This document shows positions 2,005-18,047 of a DNA stretch of 64,000 nt, piece by piece (the stretch's first letter is position 1; the number at the start of each line of letters is the position of its first letter). The position numbers and the translations under genes were made by a program. Location: assembly GCA_964460855.1 (NCBI GenBank), contig CAYWQH010000001.1:123868-187867 (forward strand), written 5' to 3'. This DNA is from an uncultured Candidatus Saccharibacteria bacterium (GTDB lineage: Bacteria > Patescibacteriota > Saccharimonadia > Saccharimonadales > UBA10212). The notes beneath the pieces are model-generated. The model made no database searches, was not told the DNA's origin, and saw nothing but the letters and a program-made list of their open reading frames with translations.

Positions 2005-2005
2005 G

Positions 2006-2122
2006 CTATTTATTGGCGCTGGATACCCGCCAATAGGCTAAACCGACCACGGCGACCACTATAAATAGCAATAGCACTATCATAGTTATAAAACCTTGGG
2101 CGTTAGGCTTACGCTTAGTCAT
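2006..2122 (-). CDS. Possible 38-aa small membrane protein (MTKRKPNAQGFITMIVLLLFIVVAVVGLAYWRVSSANK)
   Basis: Hand-translated ORF below the track cutoff. It has a basic N-terminus plus one hydrophobic helix. The SD is weak. Confidence 0.3.
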   Translation of the reverse strand: MTKRKPNAQGFITMIVLLLFIVVAVVGLAYWRVSSANK

Positions 2123-2163
2123 TAATTCCATTATGCTACGGCCGTAGCAAAAATCAACTGCTT

Positions 2164-3285
2164 CTATCCAAAAATTCCGCGTTTGCCGCTGCTTTTGCCG
2201 AAACTTTCGAGAAGTTCCTGCTGTTCGCGGCTAAGTTTGGTGGGCGTATCGACTAAAACCGTAACAATATGGGCGCCCCGGCCGCTGCCTTTAATGTGCG
2301 GCACGCCGTGGCCGGATAGCTTAAAGTCGGTACCGCTTTGGGTGCCGGGCGGCACTTTCATGCGTACCGGTCCGTCTACGGTTTCTACTTCAATTTCGGT
2401 ACCCAAGGCGGCGTCTACCATGCCGATATGTTCGCTGCTTAAAATAAGTTCGCCCTCGCGGGTGAATTTTTTATGGGGCTTGACCCGGAGGTTTACGTAT
2501 AAATCGCCGCGCGGGCCATTAGCTACGGCTTCGCCGTTTTCGCGCAGTCGAATGGTGGCGCCGTCGTCTATGCCGGCCGGTACTTTAAGCGTGATTTTTT
2601 CGCTTTTGCGCTGGGTGCCTTTGCCTTTGCAGACCGTGCAGACTTTTTCTGGGATCTGGCCGCGGCCATTACAGGTCGGGCAAATACTGGCTTGTTGGAT
2701 GTTACCGAAAATAGTTTTGGTAACGTTTACTACTTGGCCGCTGCCTTTGCAGGTGCCGCACTCTTTAAGCTCATAACCCGGCTCAACTGTAGAACCTTTG
2801 CAGTGTTCGCATTCGACATCAAGGTTTAAGTTTAGCTCTACTTCCGTGCCGAAAACGGCTTGCTCGAAGGTAAGTTCCACCATCGTTTCGACGTCCCGGC
2901 CGCGGGCCTGGCGCTGGCCGTTGCGGCCGCGGGCGCCGCCGCCGAAATCGCCGCCAAAAAAGCTGCCGAAAATATCACCTAAGCCCAGGTCGCCAAAGTC
3001 AAAATGAAATTCCTGGCCGTTGCCGGCACCGCCAAAACCCGAGAACGGATTGCCGTCGCTGGCGGCGCTGCTGCCCACCCCGGCATGGCCGAATTGGTCG
3101 TAGCGCTGGCGTTTGCTGGGCTCTTTTAATACTTCGTAGGCTTCGTTAACTTCTTTAAACTTCTCTTCGTCGCCGCCGCGGTCCGGATGGTGCTGCACGG
3201 CTAAGCGGCGGTAGGCTTTTTTAAGCTCATCCGCCGAGGCAGTTTTACCCACACCCAAAACTTCGTAATAATCACGCTTAGCCAT
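2164..3285 (-). CDS. dnaJ: Chaperone DnaJ (Hsp40)
   Basis: J-domain with HPD ([12 protein letters not shown]...HHPDR), a G/F-rich region and four CxxCxGxG zinc-finger repeats. Confidence 0.97.
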
Positions 3286-3289
3286 TCGA

Positions 3290-4144
3290 CTAACCTACTC
3301 CATTTTCTTTATCTATTGTAACCTGTACCATTTGCTTGGCTGCCAATCGCGGCGGCATTTCCTGGGAGGGGCCTTTTCTGCCTTGCAGCATTTCCGTAAA
3401 AAAATACAAGTTTTCTTTGCCTTCCACGTCATACGTATTAAAGGCGCGGCGGCTGTCCCATAATACAAATAAGAACCAGAGTAAGTCGTCGTATTCCGTG
3501 AACATCTGTTCCTGCGTCTGAAGCTTTGCTTTATCATTTTCGTGCAGCATTTTGTCGCGGGGGCGTACCCAGCTGGAAACCGAAAAATTCATGGTCGTTG
3601 GCCAGTGCCGGACAACTATACGTTCTTTGTTTTTTTGCACCATTTCAAAAATATTCAACGGGCGGGGAGAAGCTAATGAGGCGATACCGATAATGTGGTT
3701 ATCGCTGTAATAACCCTCCTGAATTCTGGCGTCGAAGCCCTCTACGAAAATCCGCTTACGTTTTTCACCCCTGCCGCTTACTATGGTTTCCGTGGGAACA
3801 TAGCGATAATCAAGTTCGCCGGGCTCCGGCTCGCGGGTCCTTGGCGCTCTGGTTCTTATACGTTTTGGCCAGTCTGATTTTTTGGCGGAATACGGAACTA
3901 ACGCCTTTAGGAAAAACGCGTCCAGGTGGCTTGATTCTATTTCGGGCAGGGTGAAATGCAAAGTATTAAACCTGATCATTTCAGGCTTGTATAACTCTGC
4001 CCGGCTTAATGGCGTAGGGGTCCGGTTCCGTTCGAAACCTTTACGCTTTTTCTTTACTTCCTCGATAGCGTTTATAAAGCTAAACTGGCCGTCTAGCTCA
4101 ACTATCTCTAATTCCGGTGCCGGTAATGGTTCTCTTTCGGTCAT
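3290..4144 (-). CDS. Hypothetical protein (284 aa) inside the dnaK-dnaJ interval
   Basis: Long ORF tightly packed, 4 nt from the dnaJ start. No motif recognised. Confidence 0.6.
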
Positions 4145-4159
4145 AATACTAGTTTTAGA

Positions 4160-4501
4160 TTAACGGGCGGCTTGGACCTTGCCCTTGTCCAGTTCCATTC
4201 CCAGCCACTTTTGGGCGCTTCTAGCGGTTTTCACTACCGGCACAGCCTCTAATAAGAACGCCCGGTAACTATGTACTTTTTTAACTTCTTTTTCTACGGC
4301 ATCGAAAAGGTCTACACGGCTGGACATACACATCATTACTTCATTATGCGTTTCTATGCTACCTAGCATAAGGTAATCGGTTTTTACGGCGAACTGTTTT
4401 GCGCAGCCAATTAATTTAGCTTCCAATAAGATGTTGGCAATAGTCTCGGCTTCTGCCTGGTCGGCACACGTTAGCCAAATTTGACAAAATTGTTGCGACA
4501 A
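4160..4501 (-). CDS. cutA: CutA-like divalent-cation tolerance protein
   Basis: 113 aa. It aligns by eye along E. coli CutA (IWLTCADQAEAETIANILLEAKLIGCA ... EVMMCMSS ... HSYRAFLLEAVPV ... KWL). Confidence 0.6.
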   Translation of the reverse strand: MSQQFCQIWLTCADQAEAETIANILLEAKLIGCAKQFAVKTDYLMLGSIETHNEVMMCMSSRVDLFDAVEKEVKKVHSYRAFLLEAVPVVKTARSAQKWLGMELDKGKVQAAR

Positions 4502-4542
4502 AAGCCGACCTCCTCATGCATTCTATTTTAATATATTTGCCG

Positions 4543-5025
4543 CTAGTTTTCTGGCGCTTTCTGAAAACTTAATCCAAGTTGGTTTTGCACTTTGGCAAAT
4601 GCAAATGCTTGTAACAGCGGTCCGATTTGGCCAATATTATGGTGGTTGGCAACTTCCGTTTCAGAAATTAAAGTCCGCTGGCCTGTCTTATCGTCAACTT
4701 TATAGCGGCGCTCCAAATATTTTACTTCGCCTGTATCAGTCCATATAAATTCGGGATGCAATGCTATGCCAGTAGCTTTATATGGCACGTTTACTAGTTC
4801 GATAGAATTAACGCTTTCCGCATCAGAACCAGCAATATGACGGGTTAAAACCATAATGTTAACAGGTTCATTGTATGAGTGCCAGGCTATTAGCAAATTG
4901 GCGCCATTTACATGCTCGCCGTCAAATATTTGGCTTATTTTTTTGCCCCAATTTTTTAATTCAAGCTGGTCGGCTTTTTTGGGCGGGCTGGATAAGACTT
5001 CTGGCCTTTCTCTTTGGACGCTCAT
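4543..5025 (-). CDS. Hypothetical protein (160 aa)
   Basis: The ORF overlaps the upstream RHH gene by 4 nt. No motif recognised. Confidence 0.55.
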   Translation of the reverse strand: MSVQRERPEVLSSPPKKADQLELKNWGKKISQIFDGEHVNGANLLIAWHSYNEPVNIMVLTRHIAGSDAESVNSIELVNVPYKATGIALHPEFIWTDTGEVKYLERRYKVDDKTGQRTLISETEVANHHNIGQIGPLLQAFAFAKVQNQLGLSFQKAPEN

Positions 5026-5294
5026 GGTTGGTCGCTTTCAAATTTATTGGCTTCCGATATTTGTTCTGTAACTGTAGTAAATATTTGCCTTGTGCCTTTT
5101 TCCGGTCCCTCTATTAACACCACTTCGCCGTCCAAGATGGCATTTATGAAATAAGTGTACGAGTCTAAAGCGTCTGTAATTACTTCTGATCTTGTGCGGC
5201 CGGTAACTTCGGAAAGTCTTTCCAGCTGTTGGACAGATTCGCGATGAAGATAATGCGTCAACTTAATATGATTTTCCGGACTATACTCAGACAT
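5022..5294 (-). CDS. Ribbon-helix-helix (CopG/Arc-like) DNA-binding protein
   Basis: IKLTHYLHRESVQQLERLSEVTGRTRSEVITDAL follows the beta-strand / helix / helix RHH pattern. 90 aa. Confidence 0.6.
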   Translation of the reverse strand: MSEYSPENHIKLTHYLHRESVQQLERLSEVTGRTRSEVITDALDSYTYFINAILDGEVVLIEGPEKGTRQIFTTVTEQISEANKFESDQP

Positions 5295-5305
5295 TTTGCT
5301 AAATT

Positions 5306-7222
5306 TTACTCTGTTTTCTTGTCATCTACTACTTCGCCTTCGATTGGCTCGTCGCCTTTTTTATCGACAGTTTCAGCTCCGCCCTCGGCAGATTCGCCCT
5401 CGGCCGGCTTTTCGTCTTTTTGGGCGGCCTCATACATTTTGGCGCCAATCGGCATAATCTTGTCACTCAGGGTTTTGGCGGCAGCTTCGAGCTTGTCTTT
5501 GTCGGTTTCTTCCAAGGATTTCTTGGCTTCTTCGGCGGCGTCTTTAAGGGTTTTAGCATCTTCTTCGCTGAGCTTGTCTTTGTAATCGCCGGCCATTTTT
5601 TCGGCCTGGTAAATCGAATTCTCCAGGATGTTTTTAGCTTCGGCGGCTTCGCGCTTTTTCTTGTCTTCTTCGGAGTGGGCTTCGGCTTCTTTGGCGGCCT
5701 TTTCTACTTCGGCTTTGTCGAGGTTGCCACTGCCCTGGATGGTGATGCTTTGCTCTTTGCCGGTGCCTTTGTCTTTGGCGGTTACATTTAAGATGCCGTT
5801 GGCATCGATATTAAAGCTGACTTCGATTTGCGGAACGCCGCGCGGAGCTGGTGGTATGCCATCTAAAACGAACCGGCCAAGGCTTTTATTGTCGGTGGCC
5901 ATTTCGCGCTCGCCCTGCAGCACGTGGATTTCCACACTGTTTTGGTTATCGGCTGCGGTGCTGAAAACTTCGCTCTTACTGGTAGGGATGGTGGTGTTGC
6001 GTTCGATTAACTTGGTAGTAACGGCGCCTAATGTTTCGATGCCCAGGCTCAATGGAGTAACGTCCAGCAAAAGCACGTCTTTGACGTCGCCTTGCAACAC
6101 GCCGCCCTGGATGGCCGCGCCGACAGCTACTACTTCGTCGGGGTTCACGCCCTGCTTGGGGTCTTTACCGAAAATGGATTTTACTTTTTCCATTACGGCC
6201 GGCATGCGGGTCATGCCGCCAACTAAAATGACTTCGTTAATGGCGCTGGAATCCAGGCCGGCGTCTTTCAAAGCTTTGCGGCAAGGATCTTCGGTTTTAT
6301 CTATCAGGTCGCCGACCAGTTCTATTAACTTGGCGCGGGTAAGTTTGTATTCGAAGTGCTTGGGGCCATCGGCATCGGCCGTCAAAAACGGCAGGTTAAT
6401 GTCGGCGACTTCGGTAGTGCTAAGTTCTTTTTTGGCTTTTTCGGCTTCTTCTTTTAGCCGCTGCATGGCGGCTTTGTCTTCTTTAACGTCTATGCCGCTG
6501 TCTTTTTTGAACTCCTCTACGAAGTGGTTAACGATGCGCATGTCGAAGTCTTCGCCGCCCAAGTGGGTGTCGCCGTTAGTGGACAATACTTCAAACACGC
6601 CATCGCCTAGTTGCAATATGGATACGTCGAAAGTTCCGCCGCCGAGGTCAAACACGGCGATTTTTTCTTCTTTGCCTTTGTCTAAACCGTAAGCCAGTGC
6701 GGCCGCCGTAGGCTCGTTGATGATGCGCTTAACTTCCAAACCGGCGATTTTACCGGCGTCTTTGGTAGCCTGGCGCTGCGAATCATCAAAGTATGCCGGC
6801 ACGGTAATGACCGCTTCGGTAACCGGCTCGCCTAAGAAAGCTTCGGCGTCGGCCTTTAGCTTGGACAGTATCATGGCGCTGACTTCTTCGGGGCTGTACT
6901 CTTTGCCGGCCATTTCGACTTTAACGCCAGTGCCGCTTTTGACGATTTTATAAGGCATCAGTTCGATGTCTTTTTGGACTTCGGCATCGGAAAACTTGCG
7001 GCCGATTAGGCGCTTAACGCCAAAAATAGTATTAGTTGGGTTGGTAACCCTCTGGCGGTTGGCTACCTGGCCTACCAGCCGTTCGTTATTCTTATTTATA
7101 GCTACGACACTCGGCGTGGTGCGGTTGCCTTCGCTGTTGGCGATAATTTCCGGTTTGCCGGCTTGCATGACGGCCATCGCCGAGTTGGTTGTTCCTAAGT
7201 CTATTCCTATAATTTTTCCCAT
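5306..7222 (-). CDS. dnaK: Chaperone DnaK (Hsp70)
   Basis: [17 protein letters not shown] and [11 protein letters not shown] signatures. 638 aa. Confidence 0.98.
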
Positions 7223-7236: not shown

Positions 7237-7506
7237 TTAAGCGCTTGGCGGTTCCGGGAATTCCGGATGCTCAATTTCTTCCTTATACATATCAAAAAAC
7301 TTCAATTTTTCTTCGTCGGATAATGCGTCTATCTCCTGTTGAAGCCGCCGCATATCTGCTTGGTTAGCCTCAGTATTGCTTTCAGGCGAGGCAGCCTTTG
7401 TGTCTACATCAATGGCCCGGTTTACCAGACCTAAAAGATATTTTTCATTGGCCACTTTTTCTACAAATCGATCGCGAAATTCGCTTAAATTTATTACATC
7501 GCCCAT
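7237..7506 (-). CDS. Hypothetical acidic protein (89 aa) between grpE and dnaK
   Basis: ORF coupled to the upstream ORF by a TAATG overlap at 7506. Confidence 0.5.
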
Positions 7507-7748
7507 TACTTTTTCTCCTTGGCCGGAGCGGCATCCTGCTCGGCAGCCTGGTTTTCGGCTAAGAATTTAGCCCTGGCTTTATGGCCGATAGCTTTGGCTA
7601 CCTGGTTAGGATATTTGCCGTACAAACCGGCTTGAAATAAGCGGTCGGCTTCGGCCAGGTTTTTAGGCAAACCGTTAATTAGCGTTCCGTCGTCGAACCG
7701 GAACTGGACATTGTCCAGATAAGATATGGTTTTAACTGATTCGTTCAT
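7506..7748 (-). CDS. Hypothetical protein (80 aa) between grpE and dnaK
   Basis: ORF coupled to the grpE stop by a TAATG overlap at 7748. Confidence 0.5.
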   Translation of the reverse strand: MNESVKTISYLDNVQFRFDDGTLINGLPKNLAEADRLFQAGLYGKYPNQVAKAIGHKARAKFLAENQAAEQDAAPAKEKK

Positions 7749-8215
7749 TACTGATTCTCCAATTTAACCCGTACCATGGCATGGCGGATAACTTCGTCGC
7801 CGATCTTATAGCCGGGTTGCAGCTCTTCGCTGACAATTTCGGTTGAGCCGCCATTGTCCTCAACACCAACCGCTTCGTGCAGCCGCGGGTCGAAAACTTC
7901 GCCGACTGTTTTAATCCGCTCGATGCCCAGCTCTGTTAAGGCTTTGTCGAATTGTTTAATAACTCCATGTACGCCCTTTACGTAATCGTGCTCGGCCAAA
8001 TCGCCGGGAGCGTGTTTTAGGGCGCGCTCTAAGTTATCAAAGGCCGGCAGCATTTCGCGGACAACCATGGCCTTGTAGAACTCGGCCAGATGGGCGCGAT
8101 CTTCTTCGGCCCGGCGGCGGACGTTGATGGCGTCGGCCCGTTCACGCTGCAAAGCGTCGGTCAGTTCGCCGATTTGCTGCTCTAAATCTTTTAAGTTTGG
8201 TTTTTTACTGCTCAT
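7748..8215 (-). CDS. grpE: Nucleotide exchange factor GrpE
   Basis: Coiled-coil N-terminus, LLPAFDNLERAL and FDPRLHEAV motifs, and operon context. Confidence 0.93.
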   Translation of the reverse strand: MSSKKPNLKDLEQQIGELTDALQRERADAINVRRRAEEDRAHLAEFYKAMVVREMLPAFDNLERALKHAPGDLAEHDYVKGVHGVIKQFDKALTELGIERIKTVGEVFDPRLHEAVGVEDNGGSTEIVSEELQPGYKIGDEVIRHAMVRVKLENQ

Positions 8216-8275
8216 CCTTATTTTTTCCAGTTAGAACTTTAAATAGATCGCGCAGCCAATATATGAAATCGACAA

Positions 8276-8986
8276 TCATACGTAAAGCACCTCTTCCAGG
8301 TTCTTGCCGGCAGTTTCGACCAGGCTCATCACTTGGCGGTAACTTTGCCGGGTGGGGCCCAGCACTCCAATGTAACTTTGGTCGGAATACGGGCTGCGGA
8401 ACCGGCTGATTATTAAACTACAACCGGAGTTGCGTCCAATGGGGTTTTCGCTGCCGATATAAACGCTGAGCGGTTCGTTGGGGGCGGCTTCGCGCAGCCA
8501 CGGCTCTAAATTGTCCAGGAGCCTCGCAACTTCCTGGACCTGGCCGGGATGAATGAATTCCGGCTGGCCGAACAAGTTGGACAAGCCGCTCATATATAAC
8601 TGGTTGCCGATAGTCGCCATGCCCAAGTTGTGGGTCAGTTCGACTAAGGTATCAACCGCATTGCGGATGGTCCGTTCCGGCATACCGCCATCGGCGACCC
8701 GGGTTTGCAGGGCTTTTTCGGCCCTAGGCACGTTAAGCACTTTTTGGGCTTTGCCGGACGACATATTATTAACGTAAAACCGGTAGCCTTTATCGGTAGG
8801 GATACGGCCGGCACTGGTGTGCGGCTGGCTGATAAAGCCGCCGCGTTCCAACTCGGCCATTTCGGCGCGGACGGTGGCGCTGCTGACATCAAAAACTTTA
8901 GCCAGCAAACTGCTGCCTACCGGGCTGGCGACTTCGGCGTATTGCTCGACGATCGCCTCTAGAATTTTGGCCTGTCGGTCTGTCAT
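8276..8986 (-). CDS. hrcA: Heat-inducible transcription repressor HrcA (short form, 236 aa)
   Basis: N-terminal wHTH (RQAKILEAIVEQYAEVASPVGSSLLA...SSATVRAEMAELE..GFI.QPHTSAGRIPT.KGYRFYV). CIRCE operators lie upstream. Confidence 0.9.
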   Translation of the reverse strand: MTDRQAKILEAIVEQYAEVASPVGSSLLAKVFDVSSATVRAEMAELERGGFISQPHTSAGRIPTDKGYRFYVNNMSSGKAQKVLNVPRAEKALQTRVADGGMPERTIRNAVDTLVELTHNLGMATIGNQLYMSGLSNLFGQPEFIHPGQVQEVARLLDNLEPWLREAAPNEPLSVYIGSENPIGRNSGCSLIISRFRSPYSDQSYIGVLGPTRQSYRQVMSLVETAGKNLEEVLYV

Positions 8987-8997
8987 TAACTACCTAT

Positions 8998-9024
8998 TTA
9001 GCACTCGCTAGTGCTTAATGCTAG
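8998..9024 (-). promoter_or_regulatory. CIRCE operator 1 (cTAGCAtTa-N9-GAGTGCTAA on the minus strand)
   Basis: The right half matches the CIRCE consensus GAGTGCTAA perfectly and the left half matches 6/9. It sits at the predicted +1 / 5' UTR of hrcA. Confidence 0.7.
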
Positions 9025-9052
9025 TTTACCGAAATTGGCACTCTCATGTCAA
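9023..9052 (-). promoter_or_regulatory. hrcA operon promoter (TTGACA-N18-TAAACT)
   Basis: A perfect -35 TTGACA (9047-9052) lies inside the spacer of CIRCE 2. The -10 TAAACT (9023-9028) abuts CIRCE 1. Confidence 0.55.
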
Positions 9053-9061
9053 CAGTGCCAG
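9035..9061 (-). promoter_or_regulatory. CIRCE operator 2, variant (CTGGCACTG-N9-GAGTGCCAA on the minus strand)
   Basis: Inverted repeat with the canonical 9-nt spacer. Relative to TTAGCACTC-N9-GAGTGCTAA the halves match 6/9 and 8/9. Confidence 0.6.
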
Positions 9062-9064
9062 TCG

Positions 9065-9253
9065 CCACATACTCACCCAAGACATTCGAAAACATTATTG
9101 AATTTGCTGTATGTTTATTAGCCGCGCAGCGACAATCCCACTTTAGTGGGACTCCCACCCTTTAATTAAGATTGTGCGGGAGCGAGTCGCTGCTTTATTC
9201 GGCGGCCAATTAGCAAATTCATCAGTTTTCCCGAGTCTTGTGCGAGTATGTGG
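9065..9253. repeat. Long imperfect hairpin element E1 (189 nt; about 44-nt arms plus branched GC-rich core)
   Basis: The arms 9065-9108 and 9212-9253 pair (ccacatactc/gagtatgtgg, caagac/gtcttg, gaaaac/gttttc, gaatttgct/agcaaattc). Inner helices are gccgc/gcggc, gcagcgac/gtcgctgc and cccac/gtggg. The arms resemble those of 18764-18938. Confidence 0.6.
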
Positions 9254-9397
9254 TTCCATCTATATAACTAAAAGTTCACTATTTTCACACTCCGCTTTAC
9301 CGCATAGATTTTAAGCTAACCGGCAGTAAAGTTCATAAACGCAAGCCGAAAATTGTAGCGACCATCGAGCAAATTTTATTACTGATAATAATGGGTG

Positions 9398-9433
9398 CGG
9401 GCTGGGAGGGAGCTCGCGCTCACCTCCCGCCCG
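9398..9433 (-). terminator. GC-rich hairpin terminator of the 179-aa cassette gene
   Basis: cgggc(t)gggagg pairs with cctcccgcccg, with an inner gagc/gctc helix. It lies 7 nt after the TGA stop and is followed by an A/T-rich tract. Confidence 0.55.
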
Positions 9434-9439
9434 TTGTCG

Positions 9440-9979
9440 TCAGTTTCGCTCGCTGGTGGACTGGCGCGAAGCCACCAGCCGGTCCATGGCCTCCTCGTGG
9501 TTCTTGGCCATGCCCGTCTCAGTTGCAAGACGGATGTGGTTGATGCGAGCAGCGTCTTGCTGCTGCAGCAGGAACTCCGTTTCGTCGGCGCGCGTGGGAA
9601 ATTCCTTGGAATTCTCCATCAGCCAAGCCTCAAGCTCTTCGTCCAGAGTGTCCCGCCCAGCATCGAGTATGGCCACACTGTGGTACACGCCATGACCGGC
9701 GATGACCAGCACCCTGATGCCGCGCAGGGCGGCGTACAGGATGCGGGCCCGCCGCATTGGCAGACCCGGAATGTCCGGATCAACCGCCCACTCGGCATAG
9801 CGCAAGAAGTTGTCGAGGCGGTCAGTTGGACGGACGCCCAGAGCCTCGATCCCGTTGAAGAACCTCGTGAGGGAATCGATATAGCGCCGGCAGTCCCTGA
9901 TGAAGTTCTTCGGCTCTACTCTGTAGAGCTGCAGGACTTCCAGGTCCCGGTGATCCTCGAACTGTGCCTTATTGGTCAA
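9440..9979 (-). CDS. Hypothetical protein (179 aa), compositionally foreign GC3-rich cassette gene
   Basis: TTG start 6 nt after AAGGAG. All Lys codons are AAG and GAG/CTG/TTC/CGC dominate, whereas dnaK is AAA/GAA-rich. No motif recognised. Confidence 0.65.
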   Translation of the reverse strand: MTNKAQFEDHRDLEVLQLYRVEPKNFIRDCRRYIDSLTRFFNGIEALGVRPTDRLDNFLRYAEWAVDPDIPGLPMRRARILYAALRGIRVLVIAGHGVYHSVAILDAGRDTLDEELEAWLMENSKEFPTRADETEFLLQQQDAARINHIRLATETGMAKNHEEAMDRLVASRQSTSERN

Positions 9980-10019
9980 CGAACGCTCCTTGTTCAGAAG
10001 GGTTGAAAACGACTAATAT

Positions 10020-10047
10020 ATTATACTATATTTAGCATTATTTACAA
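10020..10047 (-). promoter_or_regulatory. Promoter of the 179-aa cassette gene (TTGTAA-N16-TATAAT)
   Basis: Read on the minus strand directly after the gmk stop. An AT-rich block abuts the GC-rich ORF. Confidence 0.5.
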
Positions 10048-10057
10048 GAGTTAGCAT

Positions 10058-10762
10058 TTAATTGCTTTGGATGGCGGCCAGGAGTTCAGCGGCCAAGTTC
10101 CGAAGTTCGGTTTGTTCGCCGGGATTTGACGTTACTCCATCGATAATTTCGCGGGCGGTTACATCGTACTGGTGGTTTACCAACATAATAAAGTTATGGT
10201 CGTTCAGGGCGGTTTCCAGCTCCTGGCGGGCCGAGTTTAAGCGGCGGCTTTTTTCGCCGTCGCTCATGTGCCCGCGGCCACCCAGGCGCTGCATCCAAAC
10301 CTCAAAACTGGGCGGCAGCAAAAAAATCGGCTTAATTGCCGGGACGTGCCGGGACAACTGCAAGATACCCTGCACGTCCATGTCGGCAACCGGCATTTTG
10401 CCCGTATTAATTACCCTTTTATATTCTGCGATACTGGTGCCGTAAACATAAAGGTCATGAATTACCTGGGCTTCTATCATTTGCCCGCGCCTCAGTAATT
10501 CTGCCATTTGTAGTTCGCTGACGAACCAGTAGTCTATACCGTCCGCTTCGCTGCCCCGTTTAGGACGGGTGGTGTGCGTAACGGTACGCTGGTAAGGATA
10601 ACGCTCCAGCAAGTAGCTAATAATCGTATTTTTGCCAACGGCCGTAACCCCGGAAATTATCAGCGGCGGATGCTGGCTCACCAATTCGATTGCATCCGGC
10701 GGTATGTTGTAATTACGGGCCAATTTAAATAGTTGGTCGCGCTCATCCGATGGTTCAGGCAT
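10058..10762 (-). CDS. gmk: Guanylate kinase family protein
   Basis: P-loop ISGVTAVGKNT, TTRPKRGSEADGIDYWFVS and E..V....YGT motifs. Confidence 0.8.
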   Translation of the reverse strand: MPEPSDERDQLFKLARNYNIPPDAIELVSQHPPLIISGVTAVGKNTIISYLLERYPYQRTVTHTTRPKRGSEADGIDYWFVSELQMAELLRRGQMIEAQVIHDLYVYGTSIAEYKRVINTGKMPVADMDVQGILQLSRHVPAIKPIFLLPPSFEVWMQRLGGRGHMSDGEKSRRLNSARQELETALNDHNFIMLVNHQYDVTAREIIDGVTSNPGEQTELRNLAAELLAAIQSN

Positions 10763-10855
10763 TTCCGTAAGTATAAGAAATTACCTTTCGCCTAACAACC
10801 TTATTGCTTTTTAAGCTTTAGCAGTGTTTGATAGTGTTAGTAATTGGAGTTAAGG

Positions 10856-11278
10856 ATGGACAGTGTAATTAGCATAAATTGGGCGGCGATATTGGCGGCA
10901 GTATTGGTTAATATGCTGGTCGGTTTTATCTGGTACAGCAAATGGTTATTTTATGACATCTGGGTCAAAGCCCAGGGCAAGAAAAACGCTTCTATGCGCT
11001 CCGGCCCGAATATATACATTTTGTCTATATTGCTGGCCTTTGTGCAGGCTTTAATACTTAAACACATGCTTACTTATACCGCGGCTTACTATCCGTCGAT
11101 GTCAAATATCCAGGTTGGTATTACTACGGCACTGTGGCTATGGCTGGGCTTTGTTGTCGCCACCATGGGGCTGAATTATTTATATGCCGGGCGCAGCCGG
11201 GCGCTATTTGCCATCGATTCCGGATATTTTTTGTGCGTGCTTTTAATTAACGGCGTTTTATTGGCCAGCTGGCTTTGA
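10856..11278 (+). CDS. DUF1761-like integral membrane protein
   Basis: Four TM helices with N-terminal NWAAILAAVLVNMLVGFIWYSKWLF. The start was moved to the ATG at 10856, which has GGAG upstream. Confidence 0.6.
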   Translation: MDSVISINWAAILAAVLVNMLVGFIWYSKWLFYDIWVKAQGKKNASMRSGPNIYILSILLAFVQALILKHMLTYTAAYYPSMSNIQVGITTALWLWLGFVVATMGLNYLYAGRSRALFAIDSGYFLCVLLINGVLLASWL

Positions 11279-11331
11279 CTTTCAACTCAGTTATGCTTAA
11301 ATTCCTATAAGCATTTCGGAGTTAGACAAAA

Positions 11332-11844
11332 ATGGCAGCTTCTCGCAGGGCTCGGCATAAGAAAAAACATCATTTAAAAGATAACGCCTTCAAAATAGAG
11401 GTAATGGTTGCTTTTGCCGTTGTTTTCGCCCTTGTAGGCGGCTTGGTATGGCATGGCAGCCGGGCCGCTTCGCTGCACTGCGTGGACCAGACTTTTAGCG
11501 AAGGTTCCAGCGGCCAATGCGTAAAAGATATCCAATCTATGCTCAATTATAAGATTTACTACACAGCCTCTTCCAGCTATATACCAATGGACGGAGCGTT
11601 TAGCTCGATTACCAAATCTAGGGTTTCGACGTTTCAAAATGACGTAAAGCACGGCAAACATTATCCCCAAGGCGCTGAAATTCAAAATTGGCAGTACCTG
11701 CATGCTATTAACGTGACGGGTACGGTTAACCCCCAAACCTGGGCCCAGTTATGCCTGCCAACCGGCACCGATAACACTAACGAAGCTAAAATTTCCGCCA
11801 ACCAGTTATATAACAAAGCCGCCAAAGAGGCAGGCTGCGAATAG
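11332..11844 (+). CDS. Membrane-anchored protein with a peptidoglycan-binding-like domain
   Basis: Basic N-terminus plus a TM helix. GQCVKDIQSMLN...DGAFSSITKSRVSTFQ...GTVNPQTWAQL resembles the PG_binding_1 repeat. Confidence 0.55.
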   Translation: MAASRRARHKKKHHLKDNAFKIEVMVAFAVVFALVGGLVWHGSRAASLHCVDQTFSEGSSGQCVKDIQSMLNYKIYYTASSSYIPMDGAFSSITKSRVSTFQNDVKHGKHYPQGAEIQNWQYLHAINVTGTVNPQTWAQLCLPTGTDNTNEAKISANQLYNKAAKEAGCE

Positions 11845-11858
11845 ACAGGAGAACTACC

Positions 11859-12425
11859 ATGGCCACCGCCAAAACTTCAAAAAAACTTAATAAAATGGCT
11901 TTCCCGGCAGGGTTTAGTCTTAAATCGAACCGCAGCAAAATGATACTTTTCGCCTTGGTATTCGCCGTTATCGGCGGTGTTTATTACTTATATTCCACTC
12001 ATGCAGCTTCTATATCCAGTAAAAGCCGGATCGTGATTTTAGATTACGGAACGGTAGAAGGAATCGGTACCCAGCCTAAGCTCGTTAGCAATTCTAACGA
12101 CATTTGGGGAATTCCGTCTGTCAGCAACCAGGCTAACGGCCAGACGCCAATATTTACCTATATAAACCCCACCGGCACGGCTACCTGGTTGACGTTCGGT
12201 AAAACCGCTTTCAAACGGGCCTGTTTTATCGTTAACGTGGCGCCAAGTAAGACAGCCGTTAACACAACTTTTAAATTAAATACCGGCTACGCTACGGCAC
12301 AAGACACATTAGCGCCGTCCAACTACTTTACCAGGGAGTGCATTGATGCCAGCGCTTATAACCCATCGGTTACCGTAATTAGCGGTTCAGCCCTCCGCGT
12401 TTACCACATAGAACTGTATCTCTAG
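11859..12425 (+). CDS. Membrane-anchored or secreted hypothetical protein
   Basis: N-terminal TM/signal anchor. No motif recognised. Confidence 0.55.
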   Translation: MATAKTSKKLNKMAFPAGFSLKSNRSKMILFALVFAVIGGVYYLYSTHAASISSKSRIVILDYGTVEGIGTQPKLVSNSNDIWGIPSVSNQANGQTPIFTYINPTGTATWLTFGKTAFKRACFIVNVAPSKTAVNTTFKLNTGYATAQDTLAPSNYFTRECIDASAYNPSVTVISGSALRVYHIELYL

Positions 12426-14227: not shown

Positions 14228-15835
14228 TTACTGTATTTTGACCGGTCGATAAACTATTCTTCGGATACGGTCGACCACCGGAATGGCTTCTTCCAGACCG
14301 AACAGCGATGAAATTCCCAGGTGCACCAGGAAGGTCGGCGCGACGATAAAGAATAGTTTAGGCGCTAAGGTTGAAAAGCCGCGGTCACCGGTATTTAACG
14401 GTACGATCGAGACCATAATATAGGCGGTTAACAGCGTGAAGCCGGTAACCGACATAATCTTCACCACGCCGTTCCAAAATTCTTTGTTAAAGAAGTGCCG
14501 GTCCCTATAAATTATTATGCCAACCAGGATTACTACTTCCGAAACCGCCACTATAGATTGGGCGATGGCCAGGCCGGCTATGCCATAACCATTCGGGCTG
14601 GGGCGCGACAAGTTAAATGCCAAAAAGATGTTGAGGGCAATGGCGAACAGCGAAACATACAGCGGAATCCGGGTGTTTTTATAAGCGTAAAAATAGCGCG
14701 ATATCAGGGTGTAGAGCGTCCGGAATATAATCGCGCCGGCCAAAAAGCCCAGCACAATGGCAATTTCGGCCGAGCCTTTTTTATAGATCAAACGGGCAAA
14801 GTAGCCGCGGGCAAAAAAGCTGACTACGGCAATCGGCATAATTATCCAAATCATGGCCCGCAGGATTTGCAGGAAGTCGCGGCGGAATAGGTCGGGCCGC
14901 TTTTGGGCCAGCCGGTCAATCAGCCGCGGGAAAGCGGCCGTCGAAATCGAGCTGCCCACCAGTAGGATGGGCGCGGTGTGCAAGATGTAGCCGTTTTCGT
15001 AATAGGTAATGTTACCGGTACCCAGAGCGCTGGCCCGGTTGGTTTCGACGATACTGTTAATCGAGTCAATGCCCTGGTCGATAGCCCGCGGCGGCAGCTG
15101 GCGCAAAATGCCGTGGAAGTCTTTGCTTTTCCACTTAATATGCGGGAAATACTTAAAGCCCAGGCCAAACAAGCCCAGGCAAACCACCAGCAGCTGCAGC
15201 AAAGCGCCTACCATGGCGCCAATGCCCAGCCCGATCAACCCGATATTATCCCGGAACACGTAAGCGCTGGCGATGATGCTCAAGTTGTAGATCAACGGGC
15301 TGATAGCAAAGAAAAAGAAGCGCCCGAAAGTTTGCTGGACGCTAGTCAGAATTCCGGAGATGGTGAAAAGCAGCGGGTTGAGGGCGATGAGCCGCATTAT
15401 TGTAGCGGCGTTATGGAGCTGTTGGGGGCTTAAATCCTTATTAATAATTAACTTAATAAGCGGCTCGGCAAAGATAATCAGGAAGATGCCGACGATTGCC
15501 ATGGCAATGCCCAGCAGGTTTAACAAGCTGGAGGTTAATTCCCAAACGGTTTTTTTATCGCCTTTCTCCAGCCGGTCGGCTAAGAACGGCATAAAAGCCA
15601 CGCCCAGGGCGCCGGCGGCAATCGTATAAAAGAAAAAGTCAGGGATTTTAAAGGCCGCAAAGTAGGCGTCGGTGCTGTTGGGCCCGATAGTATGGAAATT
15701 GGCGTTAATTATCGAGGTCCGCAAAAAACCCAGCAGCTGGCCAAATAAAGCCGCGCCAATCAGAAGTGCAGCGGCGTTGCTCAGCGGCATACGCCGGTTG
15801 GCGCGGCTAAGCCACTTATTCTTTACGCGGTCCAT
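14228..15835 (-). CDS. murJ: Lipid II flippase MurJ (MviN family)
   Basis: 535-aa polytopic MOP-family protein with MurJ-like N-terminal motifs (...DAYFAAFKIPDFFF...). Confidence 0.85.
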   Translation of the reverse strand: MDRVKNKWLSRANRRMPLSNAAALLIGAALFGQLLGFLRTSIINANFHTIGPNSTDAYFAAFKIPDFFFYTIAAGALGVAFMPFLADRLEKGDKKTVWELTSSLLNLLGIAMAIVGIFLIIFAEPLIKLIINKDLSPQQLHNAATIMRLIALNPLLFTISGILTSVQQTFGRFFFFAISPLIYNLSIIASAYVFRDNIGLIGLGIGAMVGALLQLLVVCLGLFGLGFKYFPHIKWKSKDFHGILRQLPPRAIDQGIDSINSIVETNRASALGTGNITYYENGYILHTAPILLVGSSISTAAFPRLIDRLAQKRPDLFRRDFLQILRAMIWIIMPIAVVSFFARGYFARLIYKKGSAEIAIVLGFLAGAIIFRTLYTLISRYFYAYKNTRIPLYVSLFAIALNIFLAFNLSRPSPNGYGIAGLAIAQSIVAVSEVVILVGIIIYRDRHFFNKEFWNGVVKIMSVTGFTLLTAYIMVSIVPLNTGDRGFSTLAPKLFFIVAPTFLVHLGISSLFGLEEAIPVVDRIRRIVYRPVKIQ

Positions 15836-15906
15836 ACAATAAAAAGCTTTTGGTTAAGCATGCTAGCTTAATTATAAAGACGCCACCAAGCTTTTGGTAG
15901 CCAATT

Positions 15907-16662
15907 CTAGGCGGCTTGCTGTTCGACCGGTTTTATCGAGATGACGTGGTCGACGCCAGGTTCGGTCCCATTTTTGTGGCGTTCTTCTGCCTTTTTAGCG
16001 AAGTTCATCCGGGAATTATTTTCTAACTGCTCAATATTTTTATAAACGTAAACGGCCCCTCCAAGTACCAGCGCGCCAACCGCCGCGCCAACGGTTCCGC
16101 GGGCTAATGAGTTGTCTACAACTTCAGAGCCAGTTTCTGTGCTAAAGCCAAGCGCTTCGCCAAAAAATACGCCAATACCTAAAGCTGCGATTTGCAGCCG
16201 TCCCATTAATCTCTTATATTTTTCACGTCCGATTGCTTCGTTAATTCCTTGGCGCAACCGCATATTCATATTGCCTTCGATAATATCGCTAAGTTCCATT
16301 AAGCTTTTATCAGGATTACTAGTGTGAAGCGGCGCCAGCACTTCAACAACATTGCCGGAAACTAGCGCAGGGCCGTTGTCGCGGGCGACAACATCCGGGC
16401 TTTCAATTAATGCCGGCAGGCTGGGAACCGGATTTACAAAAACTTCTTTGATCCTGTCGCTAGGCCTAATTGCTTCGTTGGCATTATAAACAGCAACTGC
16501 GAACTTTTCGTTATCAATCACAATTTTATGTTCTTCGTCGTTTATAAATAAGTCTGAATGCGGAAAATCTAAACTGGCCGTGGGCGCTAAAATTGGGGTT
16601 GTTGAGCGCTTTACAACCTTGTCCTTAATCTCTTGAAACTCGGTAAATCCTTCTGCTGACAT
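15907..16662 (-). CDS. Hypothetical protein with C-terminal TM helices
   Basis: The start was moved to the ATG at 16662 (SD GAAGAGGG). This is supported by the upstream promoter TTGAAT-N17-TATACT at 16690-16718. Confidence 0.5.
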   Translation of the reverse strand: MSAEGFTEFQEIKDKVVKRSTTPILAPTASLDFPHSDLFINDEEHKIVIDNEKFAVAVYNANEAIRPSDRIKEVFVNPVPSLPALIESPDVVARDNGPALVSGNVVEVLAPLHTSNPDKSLMELSDIIEGNMNMRLRQGINEAIGREKYKRLMGRLQIAALGIGVFFGEALGFSTETGSEVVDNSLARGTVGAAVGALVLGGAVYVYKNIEQLENNSRMNFAKKAEERHKNGTEPGVDHVISIKPVEQQAA

Positions 16663-16689
16663 AGTACCCTCTTCAATATTAATGGAATT

Positions 16690-16718
16690 AGTATAGTCCT
16701 CTGAAGTGCCCGATTCAA
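16690..16718 (-). promoter_or_regulatory. Promoter TTGAAT-N17-TATACT for 15907..16662
   Basis: Hexamers read on the minus strand with 17-nt spacing. Confidence 0.45.
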
Positions 16719-16735
16719 TCAATTGTGATTCTGAA

Positions 16736-16764
16736 TTGCCGCTTATGCACCGAGCTGTTATCAT
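16736..16764 (+). promoter_or_regulatory. Extended -10 promoter (TTGCCG-N17-TGtTATCAT) of the 85-aa cassette gene
   Basis: Hexamers, 17-nt spacing and the TG motif were read directly. Confidence 0.45.
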
Positions 16765-16817
16765 AAAAACTTCGCATTTTTTGCGTAGCGTTTGGCAAGA
16801 CAAACAACTGAAAGGGG

Positions 16818-17075
16818 GTGGCCGCCCTGGCTACCTACATTATTTCAGTCGGTGAAGAAGTGACCCTGGAATTCCACATCCACGACAACGACACGGCGAT
16901 CGACCATGTCACAGAGTTGGCGTCACTGTGGGAAAAACGCACTGAAACCTGGGGCAAGCTGTTCGCCGGCCGGAAGAAGTACCCGTTGATGCTGCTTCGC
17001 CGGGAAAGAGACCGGTCCTTCGAGCATGTGATCACATGCACGGTAAACCTCTCTGGCCCCGGCGACTACAACTAG
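16818..17075 (+). CDS. Hypothetical small protein (85 aa), GC3-rich cassette gene
   Basis: GTG start directly after the purine tract GAAAGGGG. Codon usage is GC3-biased. The ORF is bracketed by the 15-bp inverted repeat 16787-16801 / 17118-17132. Confidence 0.5.
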   Translation: MAALATYIISVGEEVTLEFHIHDNDTAIDHVTELASLWEKRTETWGKLFAGRKKYPLMLLRRERDRSFEHVITCTVNLSGPGDYN

Positions 17076-17081
17076 CGGCTT

Positions 17082-17137
17082 TGCGGGGCCGGGTCTTCGA
17101 ACCCGGCCCCGCAGCGCGTCTTGCCAAACGCTTTTTT
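17082..17137 (+). terminator. Tandem terminators: a 13-bp GC hairpin, then a short hairpin plus T6
   Basis: tgcggggccgggt-cttcga-acccggccccgca (17082-17113), followed by gcgt...acgc and TTTTTT (17132-17137). Confidence 0.65.
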
Positions 17138-17152
17138 CATTGGTCCATAAGA

Positions 17153-17181
17153 TTGCTACTTTATACTACTTATGTTATAAT
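17153..17181 (+). promoter_or_regulatory. Extended -10 promoter TTGCTA-N17-TGtTATAAT of the 76-aa cassette gene
   Basis: Near-consensus hexamers. 28/32 nt are identical to the promoter at 17508-17539. Confidence 0.6.
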
Positions 17182-17213
17182 ATTTTATTAGGCTACCCCA
17201 AAGGAGACGTCTG

Positions 17214-17444
17214 ATGGTAATGCAAACCTATCAGATCGACGACGGCCCGCTGTTCCAGCGGCCCAGCGAGTTTCTCGCCAAGGAGGTCTTCCGCCTCGCG
17301 GTGGAACACCGGCGCGACGAACTCAGCCAACTGCCGGACCCGCCGCGGACAACCCTGCTCACCCTCTACAGCTTCCACGAGCGTGGGCGCACGCAGATCG
17401 ACGACTACAAGATCGTCCTGCCAGGTGAGCCGGTAAAGGCGTAG
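17214..17444 (+). CDS. Hypothetical small protein (76 aa), GC3-rich cassette gene
   Basis: AAGGAG lies 7 nt before the ATG. About 64 of 76 codons end in G/C by hand inspection, and all Lys codons are AAG. Confidence 0.65.
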   Translation: MVMQTYQIDDGPLFQRPSEFLAKEVFRLAVEHRRDELSQLPDPPRTTLLTLYSFHERGRTQIDDYKIVLPGEPVKA

Positions 17445-17451
17445 CAATCCG

Positions 17452-17490: not shown

Positions 17491-17508
17491 TTTTATGTGT
17501 CTATAGTA

Positions 17509-18041: not shown

Positions 18042-18047
18042 CGTATA

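Follow-up and report, generated by a model that had tools for sequence, protein, structure and literature searches.

A GC-rich orphan gene in a probably acquired, moron-like cassette between gmk and hrcA of a Saccharimonadales chromosome

Morons are inserts of deviant GC content that carry their own promoter and terminator (PMC3594210). Like phage morons such as HK97 gene 15, the gene described here, an orphan coding sequence of 179 amino acids (ORF179), separates two genes that stand side by side in relatives and differs from its neighbours in GC content, with a sigma-70-type promoter upstream, a stem-loop downstream and a small product that has no homologues. It differs from phage morons in lying outside any phage or prophage, among gmk, hrcA-grpE-dnaK, lepA and murJ, a setting for which we found no phage family, no phage tblastn match and no IMG/VR relative (the nearest being a single PHROG at E=0.16). 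Phage morons possess their own factor-independent terminator; the candidate for one at ORF179 is a stable 15-bp G/C hairpin without a U-tract, which a terminator scan did not call. The locus also resembles single-gene genomic islets and lateral ORFans, in that a short, compositionally deviant orphan breaks conserved synteny with no mobility gene attached. Daubin and Ochman reportedly found in 2004 that the ORFans of bacteria are typically richer in AT than the genomes that carry them, whereas ORF179 and three sister genes 7 kb away are much GC-richer and share a stereotyped layout in which a G/C hairpin begins 6-7 nt after the stop codon. The sister genes, as an array of short, unrelated ORFs of odd composition with one orientation and repeated intergenic modules, are reminiscent of integron cassettes and rAID-type immunity-gene arrays; here, however, there are no attC core sites, no recombinase was found, each ORF has its own promoter, and ORF179 is solitary. 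Finally, high-GC Actinobacteria use hairpin-only intrinsic terminators, in which a long G/C stem with little or no U-tract stands close behind the stop. All four cassette hairpins resemble these terminators, and a search for actinobacterial homologues of the cassette proteins found none.

To describe the locus we use a window of 64,000 nucleotides (64 kb), the whole stretch of DNA that was analysed, with the features listed in Table 1. We consider that ORF179 was probably acquired laterally, as a self-contained, moron-like expression cassette, at the junction of gmk with hrcA-grpE-dnaK. It would be transcribed alone from a native-looking, AT-rich promoter, whose first element stands 10 nt past the gmk stop and which would place the transcription start near 10013, leaving a 5' UTR of about 34 nt; translation would start at TTG by virtue of the strong AAGGAG. 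The hairpin, which begins 6 nt beyond the stop codon, may then end or stabilise the transcript. It folds at about -32 kcal/mol in a 71-nt context (z=-6.0), and 0 of 200 shuffled sequences were equally stable. There is no U-run behind it, for which reason it was missed by the terminator scan, and its role as a terminator is putative. The spacer that follows yielded neither a convincing ORF nor a near-consensus promoter. It leads to E1, a long imperfect hairpin that, together with the G/C hairpin, could shield the CIRCE/HrcA-controlled heat-shock promoter from transcription that runs on out of gmk and the cassette; behind this promoter the hrcA ATG lies at 8986 (- strand). An earlier note, made from the letters of the DNA, had described a TTGTAA-N16-TATAAT promoter directly after the gmk stop, an AAGGAG placed 6 nt ahead of a TTG start codon, a long G/C hairpin after the ORF, and an interruption of a housekeeping interval with E1 next in line. 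We recovered each of these, with gmk and hrcA as the neighbours and with the lack of a U-run as a caveat on the hairpin.

Table 1 Position and character of the features at the gmk-hrcA junction and in the sister array (coordinates of the window)
Feature	Position	Strand	Remarks
gmk (guanylate kinase)	10058-10762	-	Insert boundary; PF00625, E 1.5e-29; stop codon 10058-10060
Cassette promoter, sigma-70-type, TTGTAA-16-TATAAT	10020-10047	-	10/12 matches to consensus; predicted in silico
Shine-Dalgarno AAGGAG	9986-9991	-	6-nt spacer CGTTCG, then TTG start
ORF179, GC3-rich orphan CDS	9440-9979	-	179 aa; TTG start, TGA stop
G/C hairpin, presumed terminator or 3' stabiliser	9398-9433	-	15 bp with one bulge; GC 0.81
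AT-rich spacer, hairpin to E1	9254-9397		GC 0.36
E1, imperfect long hairpin with bifurcated tip	9065-9253	-	189 nt; GC 0.46; within the extra 1 kb
Two CIRCE-like inverted repeats	9061-9035 and 9024-8998	-	Same layout in relatives
hrcA promoter TTGACA-18-TAAACT	9052-9023	-	Insert boundary; embedded in the CIRCE-like repeats
C1	16818-17113	+	85-aa GC3-rich ORF 16818-17075; G/C hairpin 17082-17113
C2	17153-17483	+	Promoter TTGCTA-17-TATAAT (17153-17181); 76-aa ORF 17214-17444, GC3 0.84; hairpin 17452-17483
C3	17509-18079	+	Promoter TTGCTA-17-TATAAT (17509-17537); 128-aa ORF 17655-18041, GC3 0.78; hairpin 18048-18079

The ribosome-binding context of ORF179 had been said to be identical to that of a 167-aa gene at 18185. 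Indeed, the 10-mer AAGGAGCGTT occurs exactly twice in the 64 kb, at 9991-9982 (-) and 18174-18183 (+), against an expectation of 0.14, and two copies were reached in 1 of 100 shuffles. The shared context is real; as evidence for a common origin it is weak. The gene at 18185 is itself an AT-rich ORFan of the conventional kind. A decayed CIRCE in the ORF179 promoter was also considered, since another motif, AATGCTAA, is present twice, but we rejected it because the two copies form a direct and not an inverted repeat.

The case for an insertion comes from the junction itself. Relatives were obtained by way of a protein database, and four Saccharimonadales contigs (L005, L009, L011 and L034) are readable across it. 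In these the distance from gmk to hrcA is 74-219 nt, compared with 1071 nt here, and because gmk thus abuts hrcA in all four we read the additional 1 kb or so as inserted DNA. The CIRCE-promoter-CIRCE arrangement before hrcA, which spans 9061-8998 in the window, is conserved in the relatives. A fifth contig, L032, looks like these four, although a 69-aa ORF is called 75 nt past gmk, where the contig ends. In one relative, L033, the junction is occupied by another gene, PfkB. All these relatives stand far off (Gmk identity at most 53%), and a scan of genome contigs with Gmk returned a single deltaproteobacterial match of 34% identity. The suggestion that cassette and E1 would both be missing from related genomes therefore stands for these four, and no gene of native composition conserved at this position was seen in them; within the 1 kb, however, the foreign composition applies to about 0.6 kb only, E1 being native-like. 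Around the insert we found neither a target-site duplication nor convincing terminal repeats. The best inverted repeat bracketing ORF179 (10/13; 9308-9320 / 10050-10062) is at chance level and was rejected. The neighbouring ORFs that were searched for recombinase domains (110-5025, 7237-8986, 10058-12425, 15907-18688 and 21235-26442) include neither an integrase or transposase nor a phage gene.

The protein is an orphan in every collection searched. With a mass of 20.7 kDa and a pI of 5.6, and with no signal peptide or transmembrane segment apparent on reading the sequence, the product appears to be soluble, mildly acidic and all-helical, and we recognised no motif for catalysis or DNA binding in it. 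Single-sequence AlphaFold2 predicts seven helices and no other secondary structure at low confidence (pLDDT 51, pTM 0.37), and a Foldseek search of the PDB with this low-confidence model gave no match at E<=0.001. Its top entries were helical bundles of a generic kind and de novo designs, so that the structure prediction suggested in the earlier note was uninformative. Nothing in Pfam, PHROGs, PADLOC or NCBIfam matched at E<=1 except the one PHROG mentioned above, and the defence and toxin-antitoxin models of PADLOC-DB gave 0 families at that threshold. Among 5.8 billion clusters, a word-indexed search recovered nothing but the query, and the best hit of a PDB sequence search had E=0.47. Using phmmer against 1.84 billion representatives we obtained two matches only, with E-values of 7e-6 and 4e-4, and rejected both as repeat-inflated, since they are long tandem-repeat proteins in which a 'GHG.YH'-like patch of about 30 residues was matched 9-12 times. 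Likewise, nothing was returned by tblastn from GenBank phages or PLSDB plasmids, by blastn from plasmids or by a scan of IMG/VR. In all, about 15 billion predicted proteins, GenBank phages, PLSDB and IMG/VR yielded neither a donor nor a homologue. The earlier impression of a protein without a recognisable domain thus holds after these searches, and no housekeeping homologue came to light. One could speculate, with low confidence, that ORF179 is not an enzyme and exerts its effect by binding to a partner, because the accessory cassettes of mobile elements usually carry genes for proteins of that type, such as immunity, anti-defence and regulator proteins.

The composition tests proposed in the earlier note favour a foreign origin. 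GC and GC3 are 0.61 and 0.77 in ORF179, 0.52 and 0.60 in gmk, and 0.56 and 0.67 in hrcA, the GC3 of native genes being 0.551±0.072 (z=3.0). As had been claimed, all lysines are encoded by AAG (4, with 0 AAA); among the AAR and GAR codons taken together, 4 of 20 end in A and 16 in G, compared with 73% A-ending in native genes (binomial p=1.2e-6). The ratio R/(R+K) is 0.84, against 0.40±0.16 and a maximum of 0.71 in 58 native genes. In codon and amino-acid usage the segment is that of a genome of roughly at least 60% GC, placed in a genome of 49% GC. Native-looking values return on both sides of it, in the promoter region (9980-10057, GC 0.32), in the spacer and in E1, which confines the foreign composition to the segment from Shine-Dalgarno to hairpin, about 0.6 kb with GC 0.61-0.81. 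The 1-kb insert is therefore composite and did not arrive as one foreign piece, and given a native-looking promoter before a foreign gene, promoter and ORF probably travelled separately. The same figures bear on whether ORF179 might be a native, lineage-specific gene that evolves fast and owes its odd composition to a regime of expression or selection of its own. Such a gene would have the native-looking promoter and Shine-Dalgarno that we see, would explain why neither donor nor homologue turned up, and would fit a group whose GC ranges widely (0.41-0.58 at the relatives' loci), as well as an overall synonymous-codon likelihood that deviates by z=-1.6 only. However, the GC3, the switch to AAG and GAG and the replacement of Lys by Arg lie beyond all 58 native genes, including dnaK, lepA and others that are presumably highly expressed; the long G/C-stem style of terminator follows no native gene; and ORF179 is missing from a junction that is otherwise conserved in relatives. 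We consider a native origin unlikely.

In a GC-rich stretch of 603 nt, an open frame of at least 179 codons is not significant by itself (P≈0.11), and the opposite strand is open as well, over 203 aa (9395-10006, + strand). If the inserted high-GC DNA were decaying, ORF179 could be a relic or a chance frame that specifies no functional protein, and the absent homologues and the low AlphaFold confidence would then be as expected. Against this, the GC phase difference of ORF179 is 0.338, whereas 5000 Markov simulations gave 0.060±0.032 with a maximum of 0.219; by this three-base periodicity ORF179 is coding. The pattern on the - strand is A2>T2 and GC3>GC1, as in the 128-aa ORF of C3, and the frame on the + strand is an antisense shadow. 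A 10/12 promoter, an ideally spaced AAGGAG and a post-stop hairpin are ordered on one strand, the layout recurs in three further cassettes, and the sequence reads as amphipathic helices, all of which makes a mere relic improbable.

E1 raises the question of whether the hairpin and ORF179 belong together. Its arms of 29 nt are 79% complementary, and it folds at -92.4 kcal/mol as - strand RNA (z=-8.4), compared with -81.4 kcal/mol on the other strand. There is no second copy in the 64 kb, no E1-like hairpin in the gmk-hrcA loci of the relatives, and no related element in a pattern scan of metagenome and viral contigs, which gave 19 single-arm chance matches. Rfam offered nothing credible within 8900-10100, an interval that covers E1 and the untranslated regions of the cassette; the lone Rfam match in the window is an AdoCbl-II riboswitch at 44981-45059. 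MITEs are marked by terminal inverted repeats, a target-site duplication and multiple copies; E1 has imperfect inverted arms, and no direct repeat flanks 9065 and 9253. ORF179 and E1 could nevertheless form one mobile or functional module, whether as a carrier derived from a MITE or an IS, as an element that targets hairpins, or as a protein paired with a structured RNA, for example a toxin and its RNA antitoxin. That both are missing from the relatives' junction would agree with this, as would the exceptional stability and RNA-like strand bias of E1, the breaking off of two short-read assemblies about 50 nt from it, and the 15- and 14-nt inverted repeats that bracket the sister cassettes C1 and C3. 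The lack of a second E1 in the 64 kb and in the metagenome and viral scans, the absence of a target-site duplication, the chance-level repeat around ORF179 and the lack of a match to any Rfam, PADLOC or toxin-antitoxin family speak against it, and E1 and spacer are native in composition, whereas ORF179 is not. The order gene-terminator-RNA is, moreover, unlike that of type III toxin-antitoxin loci. A common module is thus doubtful.

The three cassettes of the array had been described as being of the same design as ORF179, and this is justified, because composition signature and post-stop hairpins coincide. Among free-standing ORFs of at least 50 aa in the 64 kb, the combination of GC3>=0.72 with GC3>GC1>GC2 is found in ORF179 and the ORFs of C1-C3 only, and long G/C-rich hairpins occur after these four ORFs and, in one further case, within a 1431-aa gene. 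From stop to hairpin the gaps are 6, 6, 7 and 6 nt (ORF179, C1, C2 and C3), and the hairpins of C1-C3 are each 32 nt. The repeat around C1 is a perfect one of 15 nt (16787-16801 / 17118-17132), and a 49-nt promoter module is duplicated in the array at 82% identity. The start codon of C1 is uncertain, because the exact 85-aa product is absent from the protein collection. The array, too, interrupts an interval that is short elsewhere, since ABC2 permease and MurJ are separated by 163 nt only in L009, against 15835-18944 in the window. The proteins show no paralogy with ORF179 or with one another; a homologue search with the 128-aa protein left it an orphan as well, phage searches with the 76- and 85-aa proteins gave no match, and an IMG/VR scan found no full promoter module (a short pattern matched 18 times).

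It is tempting to regard the four units as products of one undescribed gene-capture process of Saccharibacteria and not as four independent accidents, a thought that we rate as less likely still than the alternatives above. Transcript-sized pieces of foreign high-GC genes, comprising ribosome-binding site, ORF and terminator hairpin and so exactly coextensive with a mature mRNA, would be set behind reusable native promoter modules; long-range inverted repeats of 14-15 nt would close two of the units, and long hairpins of the E1 type would serve as insulators. If true, this ultra-small epibiont would possess a platform for expressing orphan proteins that is integron-like (or retro-copied) and works without a recombinase. 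True integron-type cassettes, with the hairpin as attC site, are suggested by short ORFs of one orientation that each end in an imperfect palindrome, three of them in an array, yet with RYYYAAC/GTTRRRY core sites at 0 of 4 cassette 3' ends, near-perfect stems in G/C hairpins of 32-36 nt, a promoter for each ORF, where ORFs in integron cassettes are promoterless and depend on a platform promoter beside an IntI integrase, and no integrase among the tested neighbours, we give this reading very little credence. Similarly, the abrupt GC shift inside a metagenome-derived contig might indicate a chimera or contamination that joined high-GC DNA onto a Saccharibacterial contig, an explanation that is scarcely tenable given that three independent Logan assemblies, from different runs, are 100% identical over gmk, promoter and ORF179, that one of them continues through E1 into hrcA-grpE, and that ORF179 fits exactly between the AT-rich promoter with its Shine-Dalgarno and the native hrcA operator. 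All available copies of the locus are identical, and the junction is not an assembly artefact.

For the lateral acquisition that we prefer, the DNA most likely stems from a high-GC phage or mobile element, or from a high-GC host or neighbour whose DNA was taken up by a naturally competent lineage. Saccharibacteria are described as naturally competent epibionts of Actinobacteria (PMC10633639), and islands acquired by horizontal gene transfer are common in Patescibacteria (PMC12455944). The absence of homologues would be odd if the donor were a well-sampled host genome. Taken singly, ORF179 is an uncharacterised lateral orphan gene, a common kind of object, and its packaging is unusually tidy: the locus presents a clean, well-bounded and apparently recently acquired gene with its own expression signals inside a conserved housekeeping block, and a protein family without another member among roughly 15 billion predicted proteins. 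Together with its three sisters, it indicates that this genome recruits GC-rich orphans in a stereotyped format, contrary to the AT-richness that is usual in ORFans, and it points to a high-GC donor pool, for example the Actinobacteria that serve as hosts, or mobile elements of these. The genomes of Saccharibacteria, at about 1 Mb, are under strong streamlining, so that the accessory genes they retain are likely to matter for life on the host cell or for conflict with phages.

In the window, 996 nt separate the gmk stop from the first CIRCE repeat of the hrcA promoter, compared with about 10-20 nt in two Saccharimonadales relatives (loci L005 and L009), so that roughly 1 kb is extra; it holds ORF179, the 179-aa GC3-rich orphan ORF, and E1, a long hairpin. 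The earlier note described here a foreign cassette with its own signals, and the promoter, SD, TTG start, ORF, hairpin and E1 that it listed are all present where it placed them; the first CIRCE repeat starts 3 nt beyond E1. Relatives with readable contigs share the order MurJ-LepA-Gmk(-Gmk)-HrcA-GrpE-x-DnaK, and the insert is missing from their junction, the comparison that the note had proposed: gmk and hrcA stand 74-219 nt apart in L005, L009, L011 and L034, the Gmk homologues that place the organism in Saccharimonadales being at closest only 52-53% identical. L032 is similar, but its contig ends within an unassigned 69-aa ORF 75 nt past gmk. The CIRCE(-35)/-10/CIRCE layout of the relatives' loci is that of the window, where the -35 lies within one CIRCE-like repeat while the second CIRCE follows the -10 and precedes the start codon (8998-9061, minus strand); the same double-CIRCE hrcA promoter is seen across the Saccharimonadales relatives (L005 5715-5790, L009 5705-5785, L011 5845-5920). 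The relatives' loci contain no E1-like hairpin and no GC3-rich small ORF, and the longer spacer of L011 has no significant structure (z = -1.2). A more distant Saccharibacterium, L033 (GCA_017991755.1), carries a PfkB-family kinase gene at this junction (4766-5959), so the site tolerates insertions, which suggests a recurrent insertion point. The insert is composite: only the part that begins near the SD and ends with the hairpin (GC 0.61-0.81) is foreign in composition, amid a native-looking promoter (0.32), spacer (0.36) and E1 (0.46).

Features of the gmk-hrcA interval, the sister cassettes and other elements of the window
Feature	Position	Strand	Remarks
gmk	10762-10058	-	PF00625, E 1.5e-29
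Promoter-like site TTGTAA-16-TATAAT	10047-10020	-	10/12 consensus positions; begins 10 nt past gmk stop
AAGGAG (SD)	9991-9986	-	6 nt before TTG start
ORF179	9979-9440	-	179 codons, TTG start
G/C-rich hairpin	9433-9398	-	6 nt past ORF179 stop; about -32 kcal/mol in 71-nt context, z = -6.0
AT-rich spacer	between G/C hairpin and E1		144 nt
E1 long hairpin	9253-9065		189 nt; -92.4 kcal/mol (-) vs -81.4 (+), z about -8
hrcA promoter TTGACA-18-TAAACT	9052-9023	-	inside two CIRCE-like inverted repeats, 9061-9035 and 9024-8998
hrcA ATG	8986	-	then grpE, two small ORFs, dnaK
Genes in place of first gmk paralogue	10844-12425	+	DUF1761, PG_binding_1 protein, 188-aa orphan
298-aa orphan	15907-16803	-	hydrophobic C-terminal stretch
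C1 ORF	16818-17075	+	85 aa; start codon uncertain, exact product absent from protein collection
C1 inverted repeat	16787-16801 / 17118-17132		perfect, 15 nt
C2 ORF	17214-17444	+	76 aa
C3 ORF	17655-18041	+	128 aa
C3 inverted repeat	17569-17582 / 18087-18100		13/14
Promoter module	17134-17182; 17490-17538		before C2; before C3
Partial third module copy	18103-18115		ahead of 167-aa gene
167-aa ORF	18185-18688	+	GC 0.39, GC3 0.35 (z = -2.8)
E2 hairpin	43513-43658		146 nt; -77.6 kcal/mol on minus strand, z = -6.1
AdoCbl-II riboswitch	44981-45059	-	49.4 bits, E 5.6e-9

Against a native reference of 58 ordinary window ORFs (GC3 0.551±0.072; AAA and GAA favoured, 73% A-ending; window GC 49%), ORF179 has a GC of 0.61 and a GC3 of 0.77 (z = 3.0), and its Lys and Glu codons (AAA 0, AAG 4, GAA 4, GAG 12; binomial p = 1.2e-6) bear out its description as GC3-rich and devoid of AAA. 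Its 21 Arg against 4 Lys give an R/(R+K) of 0.84, above all native ORFs (mean 0.40, maximum 0.71); since amino-acid choice deviates along with the silent sites, this is the pattern expected for a protein evolved in a high-GC genome. In DNA this rich in GC the length of the ORF is not significant by itself: 11% of the Markov simulations of the 603-nt segment yield 179 or more codons without a stop, and opposite ORF179 the plus strand has an open 203-aa shadow ORF. Three-base periodicity is decisive and settles that ORF179 is coding, with a GC phase difference of 0.338 as against 0.060±0.032 (maximum 0.219) in 5000 simulations. The gene is assigned to the minus strand, since GC3>GC1>GC2 and A2>T2 hold there and promoter, SD and hairpin are correctly ordered on it.

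The product (20.7 kDa, pI 5.6, GRAVY -0.51) has no signal peptide or membrane segment that could be seen by reading its sequence. It has indeed no recognisable domain, with no match at E ≤ 1 in Pfam, PADLOC or NCBIfam, nor were housekeeping homologues found, a search of 5.8 billion clusters returning ORF179 alone. PHROGs gave one match at E = 0.16, and the sole matches of an exhaustive phmmer scan over 1.84 billion representatives were two long tandem-repeat proteins, rejected as spurious, one 30-residue patch being matched 9-12 times. There was no sequence relative in the PDB, no tblastn match in GenBank phages or PLSDB plasmids, and no relative in IMG/VR. The proposed structure prediction gave helices (seven, by AlphaFold2 without an alignment, at a pLDDT of 51) but no fold match, Foldseek with this model finding nothing significant. 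With homologues lacking altogether, a mobile-element gene pool that is poorly sampled is favoured as the source over a host core gene. As a low-confidence guess, made because such functions are typical of such cassettes, the product may be an accessory protein that binds a partner (in immunity, in anti-defence or as a regulator).

A scan of all window ORFs for free-standing ones of at least 50 aa with GC3 ≥ 0.72 and GC3>GC1>GC2 returned four, namely ORF179 and the ORFs of the sister cassettes C1, C2 and C3; two further matches of the GC3 scan were discarded as antisense shadows within large genes. The claim of a shared design stands: in the window, long G/C-rich hairpins occur only after these four ORFs, plus one within a 1431-aa gene, with stop-to-hairpin gaps of 6, 6, 7 and 6 nt and inner hairpins of 32-36 nt. 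The G/C hairpin behind ORF179, a putative terminator without a U-tract, presumably resembles those of high-GC Actinobacteria. The four proteins are mutually unrelated, the 128-aa one being equally orphan and the 76-aa and 85-aa ones having no phage match. C2 and C3 have promoters of the form TTGCTA-17-TATAAT with a TG extension, each within a copy of a 49-nt AT-rich promoter module; the two copies are 82% identical. IMG/VR yielded no match to the full module, of which the window has a partial third copy (ACATTTGTTATAA). At the site of the array, L009 has a gap of just 163 nt from the ABC-2 permease to MurJ, so C1-C3 were likewise inserted into the conserved block that holds ORF179. The 298-aa orphan adjoins the array, and in the conserved order ABC2-MurJ-LepA-Gmk-Gmk-HrcA the place of the first gmk paralogue, absent from the window, is taken by three opposite-strand genes; the 20-kb block thus has three separate insertion sites. 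C1 (RBS, ORF and G/C hairpin) is bracketed by the perfect inverted repeat AGCGTTTGGCAAGAC / GTCTTGCCAAACGCT, then T6, where we estimate that about 0.001 such 15-nt pairs would be expected in 1.6 kb, and C3 is bracketed by an imperfect one; ORF179 has no convincing counterpart. MFE folding of the predicted transcripts pairs the repeats in both cases, and mRNA 5'-3' end pairing, insertion into pre-existing hairpins and terminal repeats are all possible.

Directly past the array lies the 167-aa AT-rich orphan ORF, with no Pfam family above threshold, which has the look of another foreign gene at this insertion site, this one of the conventional, AT-rich kind. Its RBS context AAGGAGCGTT was said to be identical to that of ORF179, and it is (2 matches vs 0.14 expected); the sharing is real, yet weak evidence of anything.

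E1 folds into an imperfect hairpin whose tip is bifurcated, its minus-strand RNA being favoured by 11 kcal/mol. No Rfam family matches it, and neither a second copy nor a relative turned up in the window or in metagenome and viral contigs; it may be an ncRNA, an insulator or MITE-like. That ORF179 and E1 form a single mobile or functional module is suggested by their joint absence from relatives, by the RNA-like strand bias of E1, and by the break of two assemblies (Logan contigs that stop at 9302 and 9305) some 50 nt from E1, but we consider it unlikely, as extra copies, target-site duplications and family matches are all lacking, and the two differ in composition. The second long hairpin, E2, not alike in sequence to E1, has ends that carry AATGCTAAC / GTTAGCATT and fills the gap between convergent genes (41757-43514, plus strand, and 43658-44956, minus strand); a 13-nt stretch of it matches the ORF179 promoter region. 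Upstream of the latter gene (432 aa) lies the AdoCbl-II (cobalamin) riboswitch, the sole Rfam match in the window.

We read ORF179 as most likely an acquired gene. It would form an autonomous transcription unit, with its own promoter, short leader, strong SD and TTG, and compact 3' hairpin. Given a native-looking promoter before a foreign ORF, it probably arrived without one and then fell behind an AT-rich promoter that was local or duplicated. Saccharibacteria are described as naturally competent and as living on high-GC Actinobacteria (PMC10633639), and HGT islands are frequent in Patescibacteria (PMC12455944), which makes uptake of host or host-phage DNA a reasonable route. The ORF length and orphan status would also allow a non-functional relic of imported DNA, to which we give little probability, since the periodicity and the complete, correctly ordered signals repeated in four units argue against it. 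About as doubtful is a native fast-evolving gene, a reading that the synteny, the foreign style of terminator and three independent outliers in composition contradict. An integron-like cassette is extremely improbable and was excluded, there being no attC core sites, a promoter for each ORF, and no integrase found in the neighbouring ORFs tested; nor is a chimera of the assembly seriously to be expected, the gmk-ORF179 junction being 100% identical in three independent assemblies from different sequencing runs, one continuing into hrcA-grpE, so that the junctions are no artefact.

The closest parallel to such an acquired gene is the phage moron, a gene inserted between two that adjoin in relatives, deviating in GC content and equipped with a promoter and terminator of its own (PMC3594210). 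ORF179 shows, or plausibly shows, four of the five defining features; it differs in the fifth, residence in a phage genome, since its neighbours are housekeeping genes, and no phage, integrase or transposase domain was found in the neighbouring ORFs tested. By this analogy it would work like a moron but is not one.

In relatives, transcription of gmk can run on into the HrcA-controlled promoter; here the ORF179 hairpin and E1 stand between the two and would bar read-through. ORF179 is a singleton new protein family within a familiar kind, the laterally acquired orphan with expression signals of its own. It is mildly surprising that these ORFans are GC-rich and not AT-rich, that four units have a stereotyped layout, and that their setting is a conserved block of housekeeping genes in an ultra-small genome. 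The limits of the foreign segments match those of transcripts, and this, with the 14-15-nt inverted repeats closing two sisters and the reused promoter module, leaves room for an undescribed capture mechanism behind the four GC-rich units, which we hold to be quite improbable and which, if true, would be far more interesting.
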